From positions 263,142 to 327,141 of the forward strand of contig JBBDRA010000003.1 of NCBI GenBank assembly GCA_040905715.1: a stretch of 64,000 nucleotides of DNA, in the 5' to 3' direction. A program made the position numbers and the translations under genes. The notes beneath the pieces were generated by a model. It worked only from the letters and a program-made list of their open reading frames with translations, was not told where the DNA came from and did not search any database. Of the stretch, positions 3,743-60,277 are shown one piece after another; the first letter of the stretch is position 1, and each line of letters begins with the position of its first letter. Source of the stretch: Minisyncoccota bacterium. Lineage in GTDB: Bacteria; Patescibacteriota; Minisyncoccia; Phycocordibacterales; CSBR16-193.

Positions 3743-4342
3743 ATGATATCTTCTCGTGCATTTAAATATACGATCATTGGACTGCTTGTTGTTGTGAGTG
3801 TTGCTAGTTGGTATTTCACGATCTCCATTTATCAGAATAATAAGGCGGATATTATTACTGCAGTTGCTGATATTGCTCATGAACTAGCTCTACCGTTCCA
3901 TATGGCCCGAATGGCTGCGCGAGAGCCTGTTACTGAATTGCCGGTGCCGGTCTACGGGGTGGTGCTTGATCAGATCGACGACACGTGGGGTGCGGCACGT
4001 AGCGAGGGTCGGACGCACGACGGGACTGACATTTTTGCCACGCGAGGAACGCCGGTTTTCTCCGCAACTGAGGGATATGTTACTCGAACGAATATTGGTA
4101 CACGTGGTGGTATTAACGTAATGGTGGCCGGTCCGGGCGGGTTGAATTATTACTACGCACATCTAGAGCGGATCGCTGACGGTATTAGACGTGGACAGGC
4201 GGTGACCACTGATACGGTGCTTGGTTTTGTTGGTAACTCCGGCAATGCAACGAATACACCGCCGCATCTTCATTTTGCTCTGTATCCCGAACGATGGGAC
4301 GCGGTTAATCCGTATCCGTTACTCGTTGATCGCTGGGATTAG
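3743..4342 (+). CDS. M23 family (LytM-like) metallo-endopeptidase, membrane anchored
   Basis: N-terminal TM helix. M23 zinc motifs HDGTD (HxxxD) and HLHF (HxH), with GFVGNSGNAT between them. Confidence 0.8.
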   Translation: MISSRAFKYTIIGLLVVVSVASWYFTISIYQNNKADIITAVADIAHELALPFHMARMAAREPVTELPVPVYGVVLDQIDDTWGAARSEGRTHDGTDIFATRGTPVFSATEGYVTRTNIGTRGGINVMVAGPGGLNYYYAHLERIADGIRRGQAVTTDTVLGFVGNSGNATNTPPHLHFALYPERWDAVNPYPLLVDRWD

Positions 4343-4374
4343 TGGCAGGAGGTGAGTATGGTAGGATAGAGCGT

Positions 4375-5058
4375 ATGAATCGTATAACAGTATTTTTTAT
4401 TCTTGTGTTTGTCGTGGCTAGTGCTGCCGGACTCGTGATCTGGATGAGCGCTCAGAGTGAACACGAAGATCTATTGGACCGCTCTCGCTCAGACAGTGTT
4501 GGTTCGGATAGTCTCATTCAAGCATCAGAGGATGATCGCGCAGATACAGAGCACGTTACAACTAATTCAGAACAAGCTACTATGGGAACAAAAAACGTAA
4601 CGCTTACAACATCGAAGGGAGATATTTCAATGGAATTATATGGCGATGATTTTCCAAACACGGTCGGTAACTTCGTAAAACTTGCTAACGAGGAATTTTA
4701 TGACGGCATTATATTTCACCGGGTTATTGAGGGATTTATGATCCAGGGAGGTGATCCGACAGGCACAGGGACCGGCGGACCCGGGTACGCCTTTGAGGAC
4801 GAGCTTAAACCGGAGTCAGAAGCTGCTCAGCGCGGCTATGCCAGAGGAACAGTGGCGATGGCAAACAGTGGTCCGGATACGAACGGAAGTCAGTTCTTCA
4901 TTGTGCACCAAGATGCACCGCTTCCGTATCAATACACGATCTTTGGCCGGGTTACGAGTGGCATGGATGTTGTCGATGCCATAGCAACAAGTGAGACTGA
5001 TGGGGGTGACAAGCCTCTGGAAGACATAGTGATCGAAAAGGCTGTTGTTGAAGAATAA
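4375..5058 (+). CDS. cyclophilin-type peptidyl-prolyl cis-trans isomerase with N-terminal membrane anchor
   Basis: FHRVIEGFMIQGGDPTGTGTGGPGY...TVAMANSGPDTNGSQFFIVH are cyclophilin signatures. Start set at ATG 4375, preceded by AGGA; the track ORF uses a GTG inside the upstream gene. Confidence 0.85.
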   Translation: MNRITVFFILVFVVASAAGLVIWMSAQSEHEDLLDRSRSDSVGSDSLIQASEDDRADTEHVTTNSEQATMGTKNVTLTTSKGDISMELYGDDFPNTVGNFVKLANEEFYDGIIFHRVIEGFMIQGGDPTGTGTGGPGYAFEDELKPESEAAQRGYARGTVAMANSGPDTNGSQFFIVHQDAPLPYQYTIFGRVTSGMDVVDAIATSETDGGDKPLEDIVIEKAVVEE

Positions 5059-5214: not shown

Positions 5215-5246
5215 GTCCGAACCCAGGGTTCGGACTTTTTTATTTT
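5215..5246 (+). terminator. rho-independent terminator (gtccgaaccc-agg-gttcggac + T7ATTTT)
   Basis: 7-8 bp GC-containing stem followed by TTTTTTATTTT. Downstream of the cyclophilin gene. Confidence 0.6.
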
Positions 5247-5306: not shown

Positions 5307-6449
5307 ATGTATTACTACGCTAACTACTCAAATGCAATGAAAAATCGTTTTCCGGCCTCGCTTCAGTTATACTTCGGTTTGCTTTTGTTTGGGGTTGCAG
5401 GGTTCTTTCTCACGCTATTTTTGTATCCGCCTACCGGGTTTTACGGCTTCGTTCTATTCGTTGCACTTGGAGGTTTCGGGGTTGCTGCCAATATTTTTAG
5501 GACCAAGCGATCGGGTGAAGAGCTGGTCTGCCCAAGTGGTTCCGATTGTAACGTGGTGGTCAATAGTCGGTTTTCGAAGTTCTTTGGTATCCCGCTTGAG
5601 ATCCTTGGGATGACCTACTTCGCCTTAATTGCGATATCGTACTCAATTCTCCTTTTTATTCCGCAGGCCATTGAAGGAAACCTACTTCTTGTTGTCGCAC
5701 TAGCGACAATGGCGGCAGCACTTTTTTCGCTGTACTTGTTGTTCGTGCAAGCATTCTTGCTCGGCGCATGGTGCATTTGGTGCATTCTTTCTTCTATGTT
5801 CTCGCTGGTGATCTTTGCGATATCGTTTGTTACGCTTGAGCGCGCCGGTGTGCCGGTCTATGATTTTCTCATGAGCATAGAGGGGTTGCTTGAGTTTCTC
5901 AAATTCTTTGGTTATACCTTGGGAGTAGGGGCGTCTACAAGCGCTGTTATGCTCTTCTTTAATTTCTTGAGAGACTTGGACATAAGCGATAAGGAGCTTA
6001 CAACCCTCAAAGGACTCACTGAACTTGTGTGGGCCGGATTTGGCTTTGTGCTTGTGACACTTCTGATATCCTTTATCATGCTGATCTCTGTTGAGGTAGA
6101 GCCTCTGACATCTGTTGCTGCTCCGCTGGTAACTCAGATCGTTGTGCTCCTAACACTCGGCTTTACTCTTGCTGTGTTGATGATCTTGTACGCACCGTTC
6201 CTTGTATTCATGCCGTTCGCTACTAAGAAAGATTCGTGTGCTGAGTGGTTGAACGCACTACGACTTCCGACGTTTATTGTTGGTGGCCTTGTACTTGCAA
6301 GTTGGTACTATGCGTTCACGCTTAATTTCCTCCCGGAGTATTCGCTTTCTCTGCTCCTTGGCGCATACGGTATAATACTTGCCGTTGCCGCTGCTGTTGC
6401 TTGGTTGGTGGAGCGTCGGTTTCGGGCGGTTAAGCAAGGAAATGAGTAG
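5307..6449 (+). CDS. VKOR (vitamin K epoxide reductase) family domain fused to a C-terminal polytopic membrane domain
   Basis: Loop cysteine pair CPSGSDC followed by S..SKFFGIPLEILGMTY, and CIWC (CxxC) in a TM helix, form a VKOR-like core. About 200 further aa of TM helices follow, with no Trx domain. Confidence 0.55.
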   Translation: MYYYANYSNAMKNRFPASLQLYFGLLLFGVAGFFLTLFLYPPTGFYGFVLFVALGGFGVAANIFRTKRSGEELVCPSGSDCNVVVNSRFSKFFGIPLEILGMTYFALIAISYSILLFIPQAIEGNLLLVVALATMAAALFSLYLLFVQAFLLGAWCIWCILSSMFSLVIFAISFVTLERAGVPVYDFLMSIEGLLEFLKFFGYTLGVGASTSAVMLFFNFLRDLDISDKELTTLKGLTELVWAGFGFVLVTLLISFIMLISVEVEPLTSVAAPLVTQIVVLLTLGFTLAVLMILYAPFLVFMPFATKKDSCAEWLNALRLPTFIVGGLVLASWYYAFTLNFLPEYSLSLLLGAYGIILAVAAAVAWLVERRFRAVKQGNE

Positions 6450-8004: not shown

Positions 8005-8031
8005 CGTCGATAGTAGCAGGATGATACAAAA

Positions 8032-8065
8032 ACAGACAGCACGTGCTGTCTGTTTTTGCTTTTGC
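8032..8065 (+). terminator. rho-independent terminator after DEAD-box helicase
   Basis: acagacagcacg/cgtgctgtctgt perfect stem, then TTTTTGCTTTTG. Confidence 0.7.
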
Positions 8066-13072: not shown

Positions 13073-14071
13073 ATGCAGCAGCACAGAAACGTAGTTAAAG
13101 TTGATCAGAAGCCAGCGTTCTCATTTAGTGATCGGGTGGTGAAGCTCCTTAAAAAATATGATCCGGAGAATGTGCACGGGGCACGACGACTTACCTTTGG
13201 AGGCGTCAGTGAAGGAAGGGATGTTTACAACATCACCGCACCGTTTGTATGGAACGGCAAGAAATATTTACTTGGACGAGTAGAAAGCCGTGACTCGGAG
13301 GTGGATACCGAGACGGTGCTTTTTGCAAATGAAGCAACTACAGGGGAATGGATTCGTGAGGAGGCGTTTGCATCACTTTCTCTGCAGGATCCTTTCATCG
13401 CCCAGATTCACGGCCAAGTCGTTATTGGCGGAGTGGAGGTGGCTTTCCGAGAGAAGACCCAGCGACTTACTTACCGGACGGTATTTTACCGAGGAGATAA
13501 CCCGTTTTCTGTAACTCGCTTTGCGCGTGGACCGTGGAAGATGAAGGGTGTGCGCCCGGTTGAGCTAACTGATGGAAGGATCGGTGTCTTTACACGACCG
13601 CAAGGAAGAATAGGTCGACGTGGCCGGATCGGCTTTACGATCATCGGATCACTAAATGAGCTGACTCCTCGACGACTCCTTGCTGCACCTCTACTCTCAA
13701 AGCAGTTTGCTCGCGGCGAGTGGGGCGGGGTGAATGAGGCCACGTGCATGAGCGATGGCAGAATACAAGTACTCGGTCATGTCGCCAGGTTCTCCCAAAG
13801 CGGTCTGCGACATTACTACCCGATCGCGTTTCTGTTTGACCCGTACTCAAGAGGAGTAAGTGATTTTAATATTATTGGATGTCGGAGTGACCTGCCGGCA
13901 GGGGAAACAAAGCGCGAGGATCTACATGATGTAGTGTATCCGGGCGGTATTGTTCGAGACGGGGAAGGGTCCGCGCGCCTGTATGTTGGAGTGAGTGACG
14001 CTGAGGCGGTAGAGGTGGTGATGAACGATCCGTTCACCGGATTAGAATCTCTCGTATTGAATCCAGCGTAA
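13073..14071 (+). CDS. hypothetical protein, possibly DUF1861 / GH43-like beta-propeller fold
   Basis: 332 aa soluble protein with repeated G-rich beta-strand motifs. Only a weak family recollection. Confidence 0.3.
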   Translation: MQQHRNVVKVDQKPAFSFSDRVVKLLKKYDPENVHGARRLTFGGVSEGRDVYNITAPFVWNGKKYLLGRVESRDSEVDTETVLFANEATTGEWIREEAFASLSLQDPFIAQIHGQVVIGGVEVAFREKTQRLTYRTVFYRGDNPFSVTRFARGPWKMKGVRPVELTDGRIGVFTRPQGRIGRRGRIGFTIIGSLNELTPRRLLAAPLLSKQFARGEWGGVNEATCMSDGRIQVLGHVARFSQSGLRHYYPIAFLFDPYSRGVSDFNIIGCRSDLPAGETKREDLHDVVYPGGIVRDGEGSARLYVGVSDAEAVEVVMNDPFTGLESLVLNPA

Positions 14072-14196
14072 CACTCACATCACTGATCAAGCCAAAATAC
14101 TCTGGAAGCACTTCCACACACATTTTCTCTGGACCCGGATAGAACCATATATTTGAAAGGGAAGTTTAGATTAAGAGTGATTAGGGTGTGATTACA

Positions 14197-14229
14197 TAAA
14201 TATAATAAAAAAGAACTCCCGCAGGAGTT
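14197..14229. terminator. bidirectional terminator between convergent genes
   Basis: AAAAAA-gaactcc-cgca-ggagttc-TTTTG. Confidence 0.65.
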
Positions 14230-14260
14230 CTTTTGTGTAATGAATTGAGGAACGCGTGTG

Positions 14261-14803
14261 TCAAACGAGCCGCTTAGCCTCGTTTGGATCGGAAAGATCG
14301 TTTGCAATAACAATCGGATCACTTTCGCCCGATTGCATTCGGTGCAACAGTTCTTCTGTTGGCGAAAGGACGCGGTCTACAACACCTGGAGGAATCCAGA
14401 ATCCAGCACGATCTATTCCGGAATCACCACAGTCCCAACGAAGACAGCCCACGAGCTGCACGGGGTCTTGGTTGTAGACCACTGCATATTCGGGTATCTC
14501 AAAGCTTTTCGTTGGCGTGTAGAGCGTAATCGGCTCAGCAGGGAAGATTGATTTGCCGCACCAGGCGCACTTGATGCAGGCGGCGGCGAGACATTTGGCA
14601 CAGTACTGCTCATGCGGTGGCTGGGTGACGTATACCCATTTACCTGTATCGGGGTCGTGAAATCGTTCCACCCGACGGCACGCTTCTTTACATTTTTTGC
14701 AAAAACATCGCTTCCCGATCATCTTTAATGTCCAGTAGGATCTCCAAAACTTGAAATGCATCTCGAACCCTTTCGTTGGAGTGTTCAGTTTTGACCGGCA
14801 CAA
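14261..14803 (-). CDS. cysteine-rich hypothetical protein (probable zinc-ribbon / metal-binding)
   Basis: CFCKKCKEAC, CAKCLAAACIKCAWCGK and GCLRWDCGD clusters. Divergent neighbour of csoR. Confidence 0.4.
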   Translation of the reverse strand: MCRSKLNTPTKGFEMHFKFWRSYWTLKMIGKRCFCKKCKEACRRVERFHDPDTGKWVYVTQPPHEQYCAKCLAAACIKCAWCGKSIFPAEPITLYTPTKSFEIPEYAVVYNQDPVQLVGCLRWDCGDSGIDRAGFWIPPGVVDRVLSPTEELLHRMQSGESDPIVIANDLSDPNEAKRLV

Positions 14804-14850
14804 CTATACCACGAGATTTTATTAACACAAGTTACCTAACATGTAACGTG

Positions 14851-14880
14851 TTGACCATATACCCCTAGGGGGTATATACT
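14851..14880 (+). promoter_or_regulatory. csoR promoter (TTGACC-N18-TATACT) with embedded perfect palindromic CsoR-type operator TATACCCC-tag-GGGGTATA (14858-14876)
   Basis: -35 TTGACC 14851-14856, -10 TATACT 14875-14880, ATG at 14887 (near-leaderless). 8-bp arms are perfect reverse complements, as in known GC-rich CsoR operators. Confidence 0.65.
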
Positions 14881-14886
14881 GGAAAC

Positions 14887-15156
14887 ATGAAACAAGATAT
14901 TAAAAAACAGCTTCTGAACCGACTTGCTCGGCTTGAGGGGCAGGTGCGCGGTCTGAAGAATATGGTTGAGAATGAAGAGTACTGTGTGGATATTATTACC
15001 CAGTCGCACGCGGTGCGGAGCTCTCTCGGCTCTTTTGAGTCGTTGATGTTGAAGAATCATTTAGAGACGCATGTTCTTGAACAAATAAAGACTGGTGAGG
15101 ACAAGAAGGCGTGCGAAGAGATCATAAAGATCTATAATCTGTCTAATAAAAAATAG
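14887..15156 (+). CDS. csoR: CsoR/RcnR-family metal-sensing transcriptional repressor
   Basis: LNRLARLEGQVRGLKNMVENEEYCVDIITQSHAV is near-identical in pattern to the CsoR signature helix. A palindromic operator overlaps its promoter. A P1B ATPase lies immediately downstream. Confidence 0.85.
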   Translation: MKQDIKKQLLNRLARLEGQVRGLKNMVENEEYCVDIITQSHAVRSSLGSFESLMLKNHLETHVLEQIKTGEDKKACEEIIKIYNLSNKK

Positions 15157-15157
15157 T

Positions 15158-17335
15158 ATGAGCCACGACTGCTGTCAGGGCAATAAACACAGTGAAGCAC
15201 CAAAGAAAGTCGCCGGTGATAGCGGGGAGATGGTTTACACCTGCCCGATGCATCCGGAGATCGAAAAAAGTGCGCCGGGAATGTGTCCGGAGTGCGGGAT
15301 GAGCTTGGTCGCAAAGACGAAAAAGGCAACGAAGCAAGTAACAAAAAAGTCCCTGGGCAAAGGAGTACACGGCAAGCATGCCGGTCACTCGACCAATGTT
15401 TTTTTGAAAAAGTTCTGGATCGCGCTTACGTTGACCGTCCCCCTGGTCCTCTACTCCGATCTCGTTGAGCTTTTTGTTGGACTTGAGATGCCGCGGTTTT
15501 TCGGTTATGAGTATGTGATACTTCTTTTGGGTACGGCGGTCTTCTTCTATGGGGGCTGGGTTTTTCTTGCCGGATCGTACCGCGAGATCCGTGGGCATAT
15601 GCCCGGGATGATGACCTTGATCGCATTGGCTATAGTGGCAGCGTACACCTGGAGTGTGTATGCAACCTTCACGGCGGATATGACGCTTTTCTGGGAGCTG
15701 GGAACTCTTATTACTATAATGCTTTTGGGGCATTGGCTGGAGATGCGCTCGGTTAAAAAAGCGCGCGGGGCATTGAAGGAGCTCTCGGCACTATTGCCTG
15801 ACACGGTGGAGGTAGAGCGTAATGGGAAGATCGAAACGATCTCTGTCGCTGAGCTTAAAAGTGGGGATGTAGTGCATTTGAAACCCGGCGGAAGAGTGCC
15901 GACTGACGGTGAAGTGGTAGAAGGTGTATCTGAGATAGACGAGTCGATCGCTACCGGCGAGTCAAAACCGGTTGCTAAAAAAGAAGGTGATGAGGTTATC
16001 GCCGGTACGATAAATGCCGATGGCTTTCTGAAGATCAAGGTAACCAATGTTGGAGAGGAGACGTTTCTGGCGAACGTCATGCGGCTGGTTGCCGAAGCTG
16101 AGTCTTCAAAGTCGCGTCTGCAGCTCCTCTCTGACAAAGCAGCGTTTGTACTGACACTCGTCGCTGTTTCTGTCGGTGCGATAACGTTCGTGGCCTGGCT
16201 TTCGCTCGGAGGTGAGGTCTCTTTTGCGGTCGCTCGCTTGGTTGCCGTGCTGGTCATTGCCTGTCCGCATGCTCTGGGATTGGCAGTACCGCTGGTTGCC
16301 TCTATCTCAACTGGAATGGCGGCCGAGAACGGCTTTGTGGTCAAGAGTCGTCTGGCGTTGGAGTCGGCTCGATCGGTGGATACGGTCCTGTTCGATAAGA
16401 CCGGCACGCTTACACACGGTGAGTTTTGGCTCGATGAGGTGTTTCCGGCGAACGGGTTCGATACTGCCGATGTTCTAAAGTTTGCCGGTTCAGTCAACAA
16501 AGGCTCGGAGCACGCTATTGCCAAAGCAGTGGTGGAAGGTGTGCGCGAGCAAGGTGTCGAGATTGTGGCCGTTACCGGTTTTGAGCGGGTGCCAGGTAAA
16601 GGGGCAAAGGGTACGGTTGATGGTGCAAAGGTGTTGATCGGAAGCGAGGCTCTTTTGGATGAGGCGGGGTTCGAGATACCTGAGGATATTACAAGCAGTA
16701 TTGATGAGGAGGCCAAGAAGGGGAAGACGGTTGTGCACGCTGTAGTTAATGGCAAATACGCTGGTGCGCTGTCTCTCTCGGACAAGGTGCGTACTGAGTC
16801 AAAGGAGGCAGTTGAAATGCTTCATAAGGAAGGTATTCGGGTGGCTATGGTTACCGGAGATTCAGAGGAGACGGCGGCGTGGGTTTCCAGCAAGCTTGGT
16901 ATAGATGAGTACTTTGCGCGGGTTCTGCCGGAGGAGAAGATAGAAAAGGTTCGCGCGCTCCAGGCGCGCGGAGAACGGGTGGCGATGGTCGGCGATGGGG
17001 TCAACGACGCGCCGGCGTTAGCGCAGGCAGATCTTGGTATTGCTATCGGTGCTGGAACCAATGTGGCCATTGAGTCGGCCGGTATTGTCTTGGTGAGGAA
17101 TGATCTGCGCGATATCGGCAAAATAATTCGCCTGTCGCGTCTAACCTGGAGAAAGATGATTCAGAACCTGTTCTGGGCGACCGGGTATAACATTGTGGCA
17201 CTACCATTGGCGGCGGGCGCTCTGGTTACCTTCGGAGTGCCGGCTATTGATCCGGCGGTTGGGGCGATCTTTATGTCAGCCAGTACGGTGATCGTTGCGT
17301 TCAACGCAGTGTTGATGAGACGGGTGAAATTATAA
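15158..17335 (+). CDS. copB: copper-translocating P1B-type ATPase, CopB-like (CPH motif) with N-terminal CPxCGM heavy-metal-binding domain
   Basis: N-terminus YTCPMHPEIEKSAPGMCPECGMSL (HMBD-type); TM CPH motif (VIACPHALG); DKTGTLT; GDGVNDAPAL; 8-TM P1B topology. Confidence 0.85.
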   Translation: MSHDCCQGNKHSEAPKKVAGDSGEMVYTCPMHPEIEKSAPGMCPECGMSLVAKTKKATKQVTKKSLGKGVHGKHAGHSTNVFLKKFWIALTLTVPLVLYSDLVELFVGLEMPRFFGYEYVILLLGTAVFFYGGWVFLAGSYREIRGHMPGMMTLIALAIVAAYTWSVYATFTADMTLFWELGTLITIMLLGHWLEMRSVKKARGALKELSALLPDTVEVERNGKIETISVAELKSGDVVHLKPGGRVPTDGEVVEGVSEIDESIATGESKPVAKKEGDEVIAGTINADGFLKIKVTNVGEETFLANVMRLVAEAESSKSRLQLLSDKAAFVLTLVAVSVGAITFVAWLSLGGEVSFAVARLVAVLVIACPHALGLAVPLVASISTGMAAENGFVVKSRLALESARSVDTVLFDKTGTLTHGEFWLDEVFPANGFDTADVLKFAGSVNKGSEHAIAKAVVEGVREQGVEIVAVTGFERVPGKGAKGTVDGAKVLIGSEALLDEAGFEIPEDITSSIDEEAKKGKTVVHAVVNGKYAGALSLSDKVRTESKEAVEMLHKEGIRVAMVTGDSEETAAWVSSKLGIDEYFARVLPEEKIEKVRALQARGERVAMVGDGVNDAPALAQADLGIAIGAGTNVAIESAGIVLVRNDLRDIGKIIRLSRLTWRKMIQNLFWATGYNIVALPLAAGALVTFGVPAIDPAVGAIFMSASTVIVAFNAVLMRRVKL

Positions 17336-17348
17336 TTAGATATAAAAT

Positions 17349-17789
17349 ATGCATAAATATAAAAAAAGTATTGGTGCGCTCGCAGGCATTCTAATGTTTG
17401 CTCCCCTGGGCGTTATGGCTCACGGAGGTCCGACGGTTCCTCACGACAGTTCAGCATCTGCGATAATGATGATGCATATGGAAGAAGAGGCTTTAGGTTC
17501 TGATCGGCACGAGGAGATGGAGGTGTTAATGGAAAAGCTTTTTGCCGGTGAGCTTAGTGAAGAAGAGTCAGTGCAACTTGAAAAGCTCTCTCGTGATCAC
17601 TCCGGAGCGTTCAGCATGATGGCAAACCGAATGCATCACCATGATGGACAGCAAGCAATGATCCCCGGAAGCTCGATGTTCTCGAGTGCTACCGGGTGGG
17701 CCGGAGTACTGATGGCTCTGGCGTGGCTGGTGTGGATCGGTGTTGGCGTAGCACTTCTGGCTTTGCTTCTTAAAAAAATAATCAAGTAA
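17349..17789 (+). CDS. Met/His-rich secreted protein with C-terminal TM anchor (putative periplasmic copper-binding protein)
   Basis: Signal peptide. MMMHMEEE and MMANRMHHHD Met/His motifs. C-terminal hydrophobic helix. Sits inside the cop cluster. Confidence 0.5.
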   Translation: MHKYKKSIGALAGILMFAPLGVMAHGGPTVPHDSSASAIMMMHMEEEALGSDRHEEMEVLMEKLFAGELSEEESVQLEKLSRDHSGAFSMMANRMHHHDGQQAMIPGSSMFSSATGWAGVLMALAWLVWIGVGVALLALLLKKIIK

Positions 17790-17792
17790 CAA

Positions 17793-18272
17793 ATGAAAAC
17801 ATCTGCCTCAATCATCGCGGTTGGTATTGGATTAGTAGTTGTGGCTTCCGTAGGCTATGCATTGCTTAGTACGCCTGTTGAAAGCTCCACGCTGCCCCGG
17901 GTCACGGTCCATAAAACTCCTCAGTGTGGTTGTTGCGAAGTATATATCTCGTATCTGAGACAGTACGGCATAGAGGTGGTGGTTAAGGATCACGAAGACC
18001 TCACTCCTCTTAAAAATTCTTTATCTATTCCATCTGAGATGTGGAGTTGCCACACCACCATGATCGGTGAATTTATTGCTGAAGGTCATCTGCCGATCGA
18101 AGCGCTTGAGAAAGGATATGAAGAGCGAAGTGAAATAGCCGGTATTGCCTTGCCGGGTATGCCAAGCGGGTCACCAGGTATGCCGGGACCGAAAGAAGAC
18201 TTCAAGATCAATTCTTTGAGTGAATCGAACGATGAAGGAGTCCGCAACTATCAGCTGTGGTTAACATTGTAA
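17793..18272 (+). CDS. DUF411 (CopG-like) metal-binding protein
   Basis: CGCCEVY, CHTTMIGEFIAEGHLP and GIALPGMPSGSPGMPG motifs match the DUF411 family found in copper-resistance loci. Confidence 0.7.
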   Translation: MKTSASIIAVGIGLVVVASVGYALLSTPVESSTLPRVTVHKTPQCGCCEVYISYLRQYGIEVVVKDHEDLTPLKNSLSIPSEMWSCHTTMIGEFIAEGHLPIEALEKGYEERSEIAGIALPGMPSGSPGMPGPKEDFKINSLSESNDEGVRNYQLWLTL

Positions 18273-18284
18273 CTGTACAAAGGT

Positions 18285-18812
18285 ATGAAGATAAAAAGAA
18301 AATATGTAGCAGGATCTGGCACTGTTGCGATTGCGTTGCTCGCTCCTCGGTTTGCGTTGGCTCACTGTCCGCTATGTACGGCAGGTGCCGGAGTGTTAGC
18401 GGTCGGTGCGTCGTATGTCGGGTTATCTACTGCCGTAGTAGGTGTGTTGATAGGCGCGTTCGCACTCGCGCTTGGGTACTGGTTGGCCGGGATGATCAAG
18501 AATCAGTACGTGTCGTATCAGTACGGGGTAATTGTCACGCTGACATTTCTTTTAACGGTCATCCCTATAATGCCGCTTATTCGGGAGTATCGCCCGGTGT
18601 ACCTCCCGTTCATTGGTGAGTACGGTACAACTTATACTCTGAATATATTTTTGGTTGGATCGATCCTAGGGGCGCTGATCGTGGCGAGCGCGCCGTACGT
18701 AAGTAAGGGTGTTACACAGATGCGAGAAGGAGCGAGGGCACCGTATCAAGGTGTTACGGTCACGATCGCTCTGCTTGTGCTCGTCTCGGTAGTAATCCAG
18801 TTCATTGTGTAG
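18285..18812 (+). CDS. hypothetical polytopic membrane protein with HCPLC motif
   Basis: Five or six predicted TM helices. N-terminal AHCPLCTAG cysteine pair. In the cop cluster. Confidence 0.45.
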   Translation: MKIKRKYVAGSGTVAIALLAPRFALAHCPLCTAGAGVLAVGASYVGLSTAVVGVLIGAFALALGYWLAGMIKNQYVSYQYGVIVTLTFLLTVIPIMPLIREYRPVYLPFIGEYGTTYTLNIFLVGSILGALIVASAPYVSKGVTQMREGARAPYQGVTVTIALLVLVSVVIQFIV

Positions 18813-18820
18813 CAGGCACT

Positions 18821-19264
18821 ATGTTTGAACTATTTATAAGTATTATCGCTTTGTTTCTCGGTGGCTTGGCGGCTAAGAGTCTTTTTCCGGGACTGTGTGC
18901 CTTGTGCTTTGCAACCGCCGGAACATGGCTTCTTGGTTTGAGCGTGTTCGTGTTTAGTCTCGAGGCATCGTTGGGGATACAAGAGATCGATCCGGTCATG
19001 TTGGCGGTGCTTATGGGCGGCAGCGCGGTGGGCTTGCTTTATTACCTTTCTGCACGACTGCCGGAGCAATACGGATTTTTCAAGCTCCCGTTCCTGCTGA
19101 CACTTTTCTGGTTGGTCTATCTCATGCTTGCACATGAGCATATGTTCGGCGCTGCTATCCTGGTTGCGGGTGTGTGGGCTGTGTTCATCGGTATGTTTTC
19201 ACTAAAGGATACCCATACTAGGCAATGGGTTACGAAGATCATTGCCTGTTGTCGGGATTGGTAG
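18821..19264 (+). CDS. hypothetical membrane protein
   Basis: 147 aa, 4-5 hydrophobic helices, directly downstream in the same strand run. Confidence 0.4.
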   Translation: MFELFISIIALFLGGLAAKSLFPGLCALCFATAGTWLLGLSVFVFSLEASLGIQEIDPVMLAVLMGGSAVGLLYYLSARLPEQYGFFKLPFLLTLFWLVYLMLAHEHMFGAAILVAGVWAVFIGMFSLKDTHTRQWVTKIIACCRDW

Positions 19265-19329
19265 CGCAATACACAGGTACATTTTAATAAGGTGGTGATA
19301 GAATTAAACTAAAGTAACAATAACGATTT

Positions 19330-19878
19330 ATGGCCTACGCAATATATAAAAATAATCCGTTCGCTGAGTTTTTATTTGCTAATACAAAGATGGCCGGCTT
19401 CTGGCTCGTGGTTCGCCTATATCTGGGCTGGCAGTGGACTGCTGCCGGGTGGGGGAAGGTGACCAGTGAGAGCTGGACCGGAGCGGAAGCCGGAAGCTCG
19501 GTCGCCGGTTTTGTAAGCGGCGCACTTGAAAAAACATCGGGGTCTCATCCCGACGTAGCCGGCTGGTATGCCTGGTTTCTTGAGAACGTTGTACTACCCA
19601 ATGCCGAGGTGTGGGGATACATGATCGCCTACGGTGAACTTCTGGTGGGCATTGCCCTGATCATCGGTCTTCTGACCGGTATTGCTGCATTCTTTGGACT
19701 GTTCATGAACCTCAATTTCATGCTTGCCGGTACGGTTAGCAGTAATCCGGTATTATTCACACTGGCGATCGGCCTGGTTTTGGCTTGGAAGGTGGCCGGG
19801 CATTGGGGTGTTGATCGATGGCTTTTACCTAAATTAGGCACGCCGTGGCAGCCGGGAGATGTATTTAAACGTTCATAA
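19330..19878 (+). CDS. DoxX-family membrane protein
   Basis: VRLYLGWQWTAAGWGKV and the downstream TM pattern resemble DoxX/DoxD small membrane proteins. Confidence 0.5.
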   Translation: MAYAIYKNNPFAEFLFANTKMAGFWLVVRLYLGWQWTAAGWGKVTSESWTGAEAGSSVAGFVSGALEKTSGSHPDVAGWYAWFLENVVLPNAEVWGYMIAYGELLVGIALIIGLLTGIAAFFGLFMNLNFMLAGTVSSNPVLFTLAIGLVLAWKVAGHWGVDRWLLPKLGTPWQPGDVFKRS

Positions 19879-22411: not shown

Positions 22412-22445
22412 AAAAAACACTTCACCGATCTGGTGAAGTGTTTTC
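22412..22445. terminator. bidirectional terminator between GH6 gene and the glycan operon
   Basis: AAAAAA-acacttcacc-gatct-ggtgaagtgt-TTTT, a 10-bp perfect stem. Confidence 0.75.
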
Positions 22446-48053: not shown

Positions 48054-48797
48054 TTAATTTTCTTTGTTCTCTTCATCACTGGGCAAGATGTCTTTCGTGT
48101 ATGTATTCAGAGCTCTCACAACTTCTTCTTTGGATAGATGAACACTGTCCCTGGCCTCAAGCACGAACGCACGAATGCTGAGGTTTGATGCGGTACCATC
48201 AAGTTCATCTTGTATTGCAGTAAGGGTCACCTCGATGTCGTTGTGTGCGGTATCGATCGCGTCCCGTGCATCGGCTAGAGCGGCCTCACTTGAAGTTGTG
48301 TCGCTTGCGTTTTCTTCTGCTCTCGCCAGCCTCTCTTCAAGTTTATCAAGTATGTTGCTGTGGTTATCAAGTATGTTTCGTAAATTCCCGCTCAAGCGCT
48401 CAAGGATCAGAAGGACTCTATCCTTTGCTTGATGATCAAGGTCAGCTCGGCGTTCCTCACGTTCCTGAAGCAACATTTCTCGTCGCTTTGTAACCCGGTC
48501 CTGGATAGACTTGCGGCGTTCCTTGGCAAGCTCTCTCATTTCTACGCCTCGAGTGCCGGTAGCTGTCTTCATTTCGTCACGAACTTCTCGAGCTTCTTCA
48601 CGACTAGAAGTGGCTTGAGTGCCGGGTCGTTCGCGAGCGTGCTCTGCTTGCATTTCCTGTGCGTTTGCTCTTCTTTCGGTTGGCGTGGCTTTAGTAGGCT
48701 GAGCTGTTGCGATCGAAGGTGCGAGCACTGCAAGACCGAGGAGTGCACATAACACTGTCTGTGTTGGTTTCTCTGGGTGTGTCATGTATGTTGGCAT
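48054..48797 (-). CDS. secreted coiled-coil protein, hypothetical
   Basis: Start reassigned to MPTYMTHPEK.. with signal peptide LCALLGLAVLAPSIATA. The rest is Arg/Glu-rich coiled coil. The track ORF extends upstream through a palindrome and is probably too long. Confidence 0.45.
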   Translation of the reverse strand: MPTYMTHPEKPTQTVLCALLGLAVLAPSIATAQPTKATPTERRANAQEMQAEHARERPGTQATSSREEAREVRDEMKTATGTRGVEMRELAKERRKSIQDRVTKRREMLLQEREERRADLDHQAKDRVLLILERLSGNLRNILDNHSNILDKLEERLARAEENASDTTSSEAALADARDAIDTAHNDIEVTLTAIQDELDGTASNLSIRAFVLEARDSVHLSKEEVVRALNTYTKDILPSDEENKEN

Positions 48798-48930
48798 CTT
48801 ATTATTTGATAATTCTATGTTGCGTGTACAAGAATACGTACTGTCGCTTGGGCAATTATTGCATAGTTCCGTTAGGTTTTCTGTGTGGATAGTCAGTCTC
48901 GTGTAAAAAAACACGTAAAAAACCGTAAAG

Positions 48931-48986
48931 AAAACACGTATCAGTTTATCCGATACGTGTTTTCTGTGTACCTTGTGCACAAGGTA
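48931..48986. promoter_or_regulatory. two adjacent perfect palindromes (aaaacacgtatc-N9-gatacgtgtttt and gtaccttgtgcacaaggtac) in a divergent promoter region; operator candidates
   Basis: The 12-bp arms and the 20-bp palindrome are exact. A direct repeat aaaacacgta also occurs at 48907-48916. Confidence 0.4.
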
Positions 48987-49412
48987 CACGCGCTTTGCTC
49001 CATTATGCCTCGGGGCAGGGGTGAGAGTTCTCAGCTTTCACTTCTGCCATACAGACCGGAGGTTTTAGGCGGCTGTCGATGAAGCTATTTCATCAAGCTT
49101 TTCATTAAATTTGGGGAGTTTTCTCTTCCAAGGTCGTCTGAGTAGGCGGCCCTGGAGCAAGAGCGCAGAATGGATAAGATCACACCTTCACCGATCAGGT
49201 TTTTGCCCTTACAGAGTCGGTCTGATCGCACCGTTCTATCATTCATCCTCATCCAACAATTCATTCATCACGTCGGTAGTTGCCCCTCTCATGGTGACAA
49301 CTGTCGTCTATTATATCGAAGGGAATTAGGCAATTCAAAATAAAAGATGTGGATAAGGTAGTGAGAAGACACGCAGTCAGTTACGTATATTAGCTCATGT
49401 TACAATAGACGA

Positions 49413-59283: not shown

Positions 59284-59322
59284 CCAAAGCAAAACGCCGT
59301 AACAAACGGCGTTTTGCTTTGG
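59284..59322 (+). terminator. long GC hairpin after SurA-N-like gene
   Basis: ccaaagcaaaacgccg / cggcgttttgctttgg 16-bp perfect stem. U-rich descending arm but no separate T tract. Confidence 0.5.
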
Positions 59323-60243: not shown

Positions 60244-60277
60244 CTAAACAGCTCAACCGTCGGTTGAGCTGTTTAGT
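60244..60277. terminator. bidirectional hairpin between convergent DUF62-like and MFS genes
   Basis: ctaaacagctcaacc-gtcg-ggttgagctgtttag, a 15-bp perfect stem. Confidence 0.6.

Follow-up and report, generated by a model that had tools for sequence, protein, structure and literature searches.

A probable CsoR operator within the promoter of a csoR-copB operon in Patescibacteria

Described CsoR-family switches and the patescibacterial locus

Streptomycete CsoR recognizes the consensus ATATACCCCTNAGGGGTATAT, which contains a TAC-X9-GTA dyad and is bound by two tetramers, its G tracts being A-form-like (PMC3902906). In Streptomyces lividans, binding needs the RLXR motif (R54 and R57) and Q81 of the repressor (PMC3902906), and the operator is found 5' of csoR, an autoregulatory arrangement, and of a copper ATPase gene. 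For Mesorhizobium NreA, a CsoR/RcnR-family repressor encoded by the first cistron of nreAXY, the dyad operator lies inside the -35/-10 spacer and the transcript is leaderless by 5'-RACE (PMC12724321). The Mycobacterium tuberculosis cso operon, which begins with csoR and ends in a copper ATPase gene, is autoregulated through an operator overlapping the -10 and -35 elements, according to the original work as it is cited in PMC10318464. Finally, Thermus thermophilus CsoR (TTHA1719, PDB 3AAI) is encoded in a copper ATPase operon and uses the operator CCCCACCCCACCTGGGGTGGGG, which has no TAC/GTA dyad (PMC10318464). As for metal ligands, x-C-H-C, the C36/H61/C65 pattern of M. tuberculosis CsoR, is the fingerprint of the canonical Cu(I) CsoR, and x-C-H-H, a probable Cu(I) sensor, is that of the TtCsoR type (PMC11672702).

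Here we analyze a csoR-copB locus in a 64-kb stretch of patescibacterial DNA (the window; Table 1). From sequence comparison, we consider it very probable that the 21-bp palindrome upstream of the csoR-like gene is the operator of the adjacent CsoR-family repressor, set in the only promoter of csoR-copB and its accessory genes. Only one of the 21 positions of the window 21-mer ATATACCCCTAGGGGGTATAT, in the non-conserved center, departs from the streptomycete consensus (20/21 shared), so the site is nearly identical to the operator type seen at csoR-4375, copZA1, and copZA2 in S. lividans. It has the features of a type-2 operator: TAC and GTA 9 bp apart, C and G tracts, and AT-rich flanks. Thus the consensus match, the dyad, and a PF02583 repressor next door bear out the initial annotation, which had called the site a CsoR-type operator.

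The locus differs from each described system in some respect. S. lividans CsoR shares the RLXR motif and the conserved Gln with the window repressor, but the proteins are distant (E 1.5e-11), the S. lividans sensor is x-C-H-C whereas ours is x-C-H-H, and an actinobacterial host is replaced by a patescibacterial one, with a CopB-type (CPH) pump and an operon that lacks a CopZ gene. NreA is close in design, down to the compactness of the cis-region (39 bp in nreAXY and ~37 bp in the window; PMC12724321), although its leaderless transcript has a counterpart here only as predicted from sequence; it differs in responding to nickel, in its type 1 operator (TATCC-N9-GGATA), and in controlling nreXY efflux instead of a P-type ATPase. 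T. thermophilus CsoR resembles the window protein in its x-C-H-H fingerprint, its second-shell Tyr/Glu, and its copper ATPase operon containing csoR, but its pump is CopA, accompanied by a CopZ chaperone, and its similarity to the window protein is lower than that of C-H-C CsoRs. M. tuberculosis CsoR (PDB 2HH7) is the best PDB match (E 3.5e-12) and differs in having a C-H-C fingerprint and a longer operator with an inverted GTA...TAC arrangement. Because of the M. tuberculosis cso (PMC10318464) and NreA (PMC12724321) precedents, the promoter/operator design is not new; this is a known kind of switch, and no new mechanism is revealed. What the locus offers is a precise cis-element and a clear copper-efflux logic in Paceibacterota, a lineage with essentially no experimental genetics; in the literature searched we found no description of CsoR or leaderless mRNAs in Patescibacteria, or of the csoR module there.

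Table 1. Features of the csoR-copB locus, in window coordinates
Feature	Position	Strand	Remarks
Divergent upstream gene, Cys-rich protein	14261-14803	-	no Pfam or NCBIfam match
-35 hexamer TTGACC	14851..14856	+	sigma-70-like match
Putative CsoR-type operator ATATACCCC-TAG-GGGGTATAT	14857..14877	.	21-bp perfect palindrome, matches streptomycete consensus
-10 hexamer TATACT	14875..14880	+	alternative register TATATA 14873-14878; overlaps operator right arm
Predicted transcription start	14885..14887	+	inferred from 6-8 nt between either candidate -10 and ATG
csoR-like repressor gene, 89 aa	14887..15156	+	PF02583, E 5e-26
CopB-type (P1B-3) copper ATPase, 725 aa, N-terminal HMBD	15158..17335	+	E1-E2_ATPase, Hydrolase, HMBD (Pfam)
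Met/His-rich protein, 146 aa	17349-17789	+	no Pfam match; C-terminal hydrophobic segment
DUF411 protein, C-x-C-C motif (CGCC)	17793-18272	+	DUF411 E 1.2e-17
Membrane protein	18285-18812	+	
Membrane protein	18821-19264	+	

The promoter, its palindrome, and their conservation

The full promoter/operator sequence reads gTTGACCaTATACCCCTAGGGGGTATATACTggaaacATG. As first described, a perfect palindrome, TATACCCC-TAG-GGGGTATA (14858-14876, centered on A14867), is enclosed in TTGACC-N18-TATACT, and both elements are read at these coordinates. The arms extend 1 bp further on each side, giving 9-bp arms ATATACCCC (14857-65) and GGGGTATAT (14869-77), and the dyad TAC(14860-62)-CCCTAGGGG-GTA(14872-74) spans 14860-14874. 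The description of the operator as lying between the hexamers needs a small correction: it is inside the promoter but not strictly between them, the right arm overlapping the -10 element by 2 nt, or by 3 nt when the extended arm to 14877 is counted. With its spacer of 18 nt, TTGACC/TATACT is the top sigma-70-like match in the range scanned (10/12 positions; 13800-19500). The alternative -10 register would have a spacer of 16 nt and leave 8 nt before the ATG. The ATG at 14887 indeed follows TATACT (ending at 14880) after 6 nt, GGAAAC. This start codon is forced, because the palindrome contains an in-frame TAG stop (14866-68) and no ATG, GTG, or TTG occurs from there to 14887. Either -10 register would leave a leader of 0-2 nt.

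Neither element is remarkable on its own. Promoter-like matches are not above chance by themselves (3 observed versus 5.7 expected in 13800-19500), and perfect palindromes with arms of at least 9 are not rare, about 10 distinct ones occurring in the window versus ~1.3 in shuffles. The case for an operator therefore rests on context and conservation. Additional copies, with which the initial annotation had proposed to define a regulon, did not turn up in a mismatch-tolerant scan of the 64-kb window: the 19-mer occurs once even with 3 mismatches (0 expected, 100 shuffles), and the looser TACCCC-N3-GGGGTA with 2 mismatches gave two intragenic matches (30687 and 46716) at chance level (0.73 expected).

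Querying one genome per species with the protein family gave 80 loci, every one of them patescibacterial, and in all of them the palindrome lies 5' of the csoR orthologue. The module of -35, palindrome, -10 fused to the right arm, and ATG 6-10 nt further on is present in 78 of these 80 species genomes. Hence the arrangement singled out at the start as a near-ideal autoregulated design does recur, although it is not unusual, NreA being built the same way (PMC12724321). When the sites were aligned on the palindrome center (76 unique sites, positions counted from the center), A-T-A-C-C-C at -8 to -3 and G-G-G-T-A-T at +3 to +8 were invariant or nearly so, and the TAC-N9-GTA dyad was invariant. 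In 640 kb of loci there are 79 matches to the strict motif ATACCC-N5-GGGTAT, all but three of them (76) at the canonical position, and motif and csoR gene are found together in 81/81 loci. The two closest relatives (82% and 75% protein identity) have operator and -10 intact next to an upstream flank that can no longer be aligned.

The promoter elements are conserved along with the palindrome. TTGnnn is at the same place in 77/80 sites, starting at -17 in 38, -18 in 17, -16 in 16, and -15 in 6, and the spacer from it to the -10 is 15-18 nt across loci (mode 17). Most loci have a -10 beginning at +6, the first T of GTAT, and most read TATTAT, TATAAT, or TATACT from +6 to +11; eight other loci share with the window a better hexamer at +8. 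Where TATATA is read at +6, the ATG is shifted downstream as well, which supports TATACT as the -10 in the window. At +11, T is kept in 88% of sites without conservation of the mirror position, so we assign this constraint to the promoter (-10) and not to the operator. Between the best -10 and the ATG there are 6 nt in 42 of the 80 loci, 7 nt in 7, 8 nt in 20, 9 nt in 8, and 10 nt in 1; in the remaining two, L031 and L074, the module lies 38-41 nt 5' of the ATG. ATG is the start codon in 81/81 loci. Covariation between the half-sites was seen at ±9 and ±10, a signal that is only suggestive because the shuffle test ignores phylogeny; past ±10, mirror covariation was not significant among the 76 unique sites.

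Through this comparison a single site becomes a motif of the whole phylum, ATAC-N9-GTAT merging into the -10 and followed 6-10 nt later by an ATG. It can be used to define CsoR regulons in CPR metagenome-assembled genomes and offers a compact metal-inducible promoter. The motif can also be used to correct csoR start-codon calls, since some public models read through the operator. Such calls, public and mechanical, occur in P0003 (L086:1501-1899) and at L068:2918-3229, where the ORFs run upstream through the operator and carry N-terminal extensions with YTPRGY or TPRGY, the translated palindrome; these extensions are mis-called starts.

Two loci contain further copies of the module. L068 has two csoR paralogues and an extra operator/promoter before a small minus-strand secreted or membrane protein (L068:2918-4270, L068:3880-3896). 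In L036, a second TTGACT-operator-TATACT module lies 4.1 kb 3' of csoR (L036:8111-8140).

The repressor, the pump, and the inducing metal

The repressor scores 91 bits against PF02583 (Trns_repr_metal; cutoff 22.8), with residues 6-82 covered, and matches PDB chains of CsoR, InrS, CstR, and FrmR. An identical protein is annotated in a Candidatus Paceibacterota metagenome-assembled genome, which places the window in CPR/Patescibacteria, and the assemblies SRR27977661-63 and GCA_040876875.1 contain the identical gene. We aligned it to the CsoR structures of M. tuberculosis (2HH7), Geobacillus (4M1P), and S. lividans (4ADZ). In the structure alignment, C33, H58, and H62 correspond to M. tuberculosis C36, H61, and C65, and the second-shell residues Y32 and E78 to Y35 and E81. 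The canonical x-C-H-C fingerprint is therefore replaced by x-C-H-H, with H62 in the Z position. This C-H-H fingerprint is found in 81/81 orthologues, in which C33/H58/H62, Y32, and E78 are invariant and the first 10 residues contain no His in 79 of 81. The protein thus has the marks of the TtCsoR type: x-C-H-H, no N-terminal W ligand, the Tyr/Glu pair, and a copper ATPase as neighbor. Fingerprint and clade need not coincide, because sequence relatedness to TtCsoR is not close: the repressor matches Thermus CsoR with E 3.5e-8 and C-H-C CsoRs with E ~4e-12, and is no closer to Thermus.

The DNA-binding surface is that of S. lividans CsoR, with RLXR as R12-L13-A14-R15 and Q39 equivalent to Q81 (4ADZ alignment, numbering offset 3). 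R12 and Q39 are present in 81/81 orthologues. R15 is present in 17 of the 81, and the R15 contact is not universal in the clade because 56 have Ile at that site. Whether the fourth RLXR position is Arg or Ile showed no clear association among loci with the flanking bases at ±9/10. The orthologues contribute many naturally occurring pairs of an x-C-H-H sensor with a Streptomyces/Bacillus-type operator.

The ATPase ORF begins 1 nt past the csoR stop codon. Its product scores 566 bits against the copper-translocating ATPase model TIGR01511 (cutoff 397) and contains ACPHA, GYNIVALP, and MSAST, in agreement with the P1B-3/CopB signature of CPH in TM6, GYN(x)4P in TM7, and MSxST in TM8 (PMC5552934). 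Both results justify the copB in the name csoR-copB given to the promoter at the outset. The His-rich N-terminus of the CopB type is missing (3 His in the first 60 residues), and an HMBD (PF19335, E 2.3e-10, residues 26-53) stands in its place; some orthologous loci do have His-rich ATPase N-termini, with up to 13 His. The four genes at 17349-19264 are probably co-transcribed with csoR-copB, being on the same strand with gaps of 3-13 nt. Homologues of the DUF411 protein and the two membrane proteins occur in 12-15 of 81 csoR loci, a recurrence that suggests an accessory module for copper, conserved within CPR bacteria. On the other side of the promoter, the divergent Cys-rich gene (166 aa with a start at window 14761 in the NCBI model) has a putative -10 of its own, TATAGT near 14804-14809; it is not a conserved csoR partner, because homologues were found in only 2 of 81 loci.

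A downstream ORF on the same strand matches the window ATPase in 73 of 81 loci, and in at least 61 of 81 a transmembrane CPx is recognizable: 39 are CPH (CopB type) and 22 CPC (CopA type), most of the CPC ATPases having an N-terminal CxxC motif. That one repressor/operator module drives both classes of copper pump is our main argument for copper as the inducer despite the C-H-H fingerprint. In the window, the DUF411 and Met/His-rich proteins encoded after the pump also speak for copper. Judged by the linked ATPases, the sensor would be specific for Cu(I).

A broader reading goes further: Patescibacteria would share a single, near-invariant promoter/operator/leaderless-start cassette of ~37 bp, operated by a distinct x-C-H-H CsoR clade whose metal range possibly exceeds Cu(I), with the ±9/10 half-site covariation as possible lineage-specific tuning of recognition. 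We regard this as an unlikely proposal. If true, it would provide the first well-defined inducible promoter for CPR bacteria and a marker of general leaderless or short-leader, Shine-Dalgarno-poor expression in them.

Also unlikely is an inducer other than, or additional to, Cu(I) with the architecture unchanged: the sensor would respond to Ni(II), Co(II), or Zn(II), or to more than one metal. RcnR, with the fingerprint H-C-H-H, has C-H-H at X-Y-Z as well, and its ligands include His3 (the W ligand) and the N-terminal amine; but the 81 orthologues essentially all lack the W-position His, position 3 being Gln in the window protein and His in 1 of the 81. His at Z may enhance promiscuity, and according to a review the Cu(I) specificity of the x-C-H-H type has yet to be evaluated unequivocally (PMC11672702); against this, the Tyr/Glu pair found in the second shell of Cu(I) sensors never varies among the orthologues. 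The same promoter design serves a nickel sensor in the case of NreA (PMC12724321), but the transporters linked to our module are of the copper types P1B-3 or P1B-1 in 61 of 81 loci, and the operator is of the CsoR TAC-N9-GTA type and not the RcnR type, TACT-G6-N-AGTA (PMC3902906), its C and G tracts being split where RcnR sites have a single G6 tract. In favor of another inducer, matches to the RicR, RcnR, and FrmR models of NCBIfam are alike in falling below threshold; for RcnR (NF011613), the score is 37.8 bits against a cutoff of 138. We conclude that Cu(I) is the most plausible inducer.

Proposed mechanism, the leader, and other readings of the palindrome

What we see directly are the sequence elements, the families of the encoded proteins, their metal-ligand and DNA-contacting residues, and a module conserved as a whole; from these we infer how binding, its stoichiometry, induction by copper, and the start of transcription would fit together. 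Metal-free repressor would bind the TAC-N9-GTA dyad and the G/C tracts; if it behaves like Streptomyces CsoR, two tetramers would sit on opposite DNA faces. Because the spacer between -35 and -10 is filled by the site and the -10 is partly covered by it, we propose that RNA polymerase is denied access to the promoter while repressor is bound. Cu(I) at a subunit-bridging Cys33/His58'/His62' site would lower the affinity for DNA, and the released operon would be transcribed to give efflux pump and more repressor, closing a loop of negative autoregulation. Transcription would start at the ATG or within ~2 nt of it, and for this reason we propose leaderless translation of the first cistron.

Three features point to a leaderless csoR transcript: the conserved spacing, the obligatory ATG, and the lack of a Shine-Dalgarno site. 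An AUG start with no Shine-Dalgarno site is a recognized criterion for leaderless mRNA, and csoR has both; the second half of it is weak evidence alone, because the genome is generally Shine-Dalgarno-poor. Shine-Dalgarno-like words, even of 4 nt (-20 to -4), precede only ~8 of the 62 naive gene calls in the window, and in 16 of the 62 genes -10-like hexamers (at least 5/6 to TATAAT) cluster 9-14 nt 5' of the start codon. These counts suggest that very short leaders are common in the Paceibacterota genome from which the window comes. For the same reason, a leaderless csoR would not be exceptional, and we see in it no special adaptation of the sensor.

There is a slim chance that the promoter is correctly placed and the mRNA is nonetheless leadered, the main start lying further upstream and the palindrome forming a hairpin in the 5'-UTR. 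The palindrome does fold as a single strand (-10.2 kcal/mol, z = -4.0), and L031 and L074, with the module 38-41 nt before the ATG, indicate that leadered versions exist, albeit in 2 of 80 loci. However, -35 and -10 flank the palindrome at the canonical 15-18 nt spacing in nearly all loci, the T at +11 is conserved asymmetrically, like a -10 element, and no second plus-strand promoter-like site lies upstream in the 13800-19500 scan. Nor does a Shine-Dalgarno site follow the hairpin, and scans of the whole window, at Rfam gathering thresholds and for tRNAs, found no Rfam family match and no tRNA. A leader of at most ~2 nt is thus the reading we prefer for csoR.

MerR-family operators are also located in promoter spacers and, with TATACT taken as the -10, the window spacer has 18 nt. 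We nonetheless give almost no credence to two further readings, and reject both: that the palindrome serves another regulator, either a MerR-type activator (the spacer then being over-long) or a repressor like CopY, and that it is a structural repeat or a terminator, as other perfect palindromes in the window appear to be. There is no adjacent MerR or CopY gene, the spacer mode across loci is 17 nt and not 19-20, and the CopY box TACAnnTGTA does not occur in the operator. Nor is the palindrome followed by a T-run, and with a divergent gene upstream there is nothing to terminate. The motif co-occurs with csoR in 81/81 loci.

Most of the other palindromes in the window with arms of at least 9 are terminator-like, several being intergenic with A-run/T-run flanks; that at 14858-76 sits between promoter hexamers. 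Long perfect intergenic hairpins lie at 8027-8058, 14209-14234, 22414-22444, 59284-59322, and 60244-60276, and several have both an A-run and a T-run flank; these five look like bidirectional intrinsic terminators. A further perfect palindrome, GTCCGAACCCAGGGTTCGGAC, occupies 5215-5235, between the ORFs 4342-5058 and 5307-6449. Finally, a perfect 24-bp palindrome, GTGTACCTTGTGCACAAGGTACAC (48966-48989), lies without a T-run at the 5' end of the minus-strand ORF 48054-48989 and is possibly the operator of another regulator.
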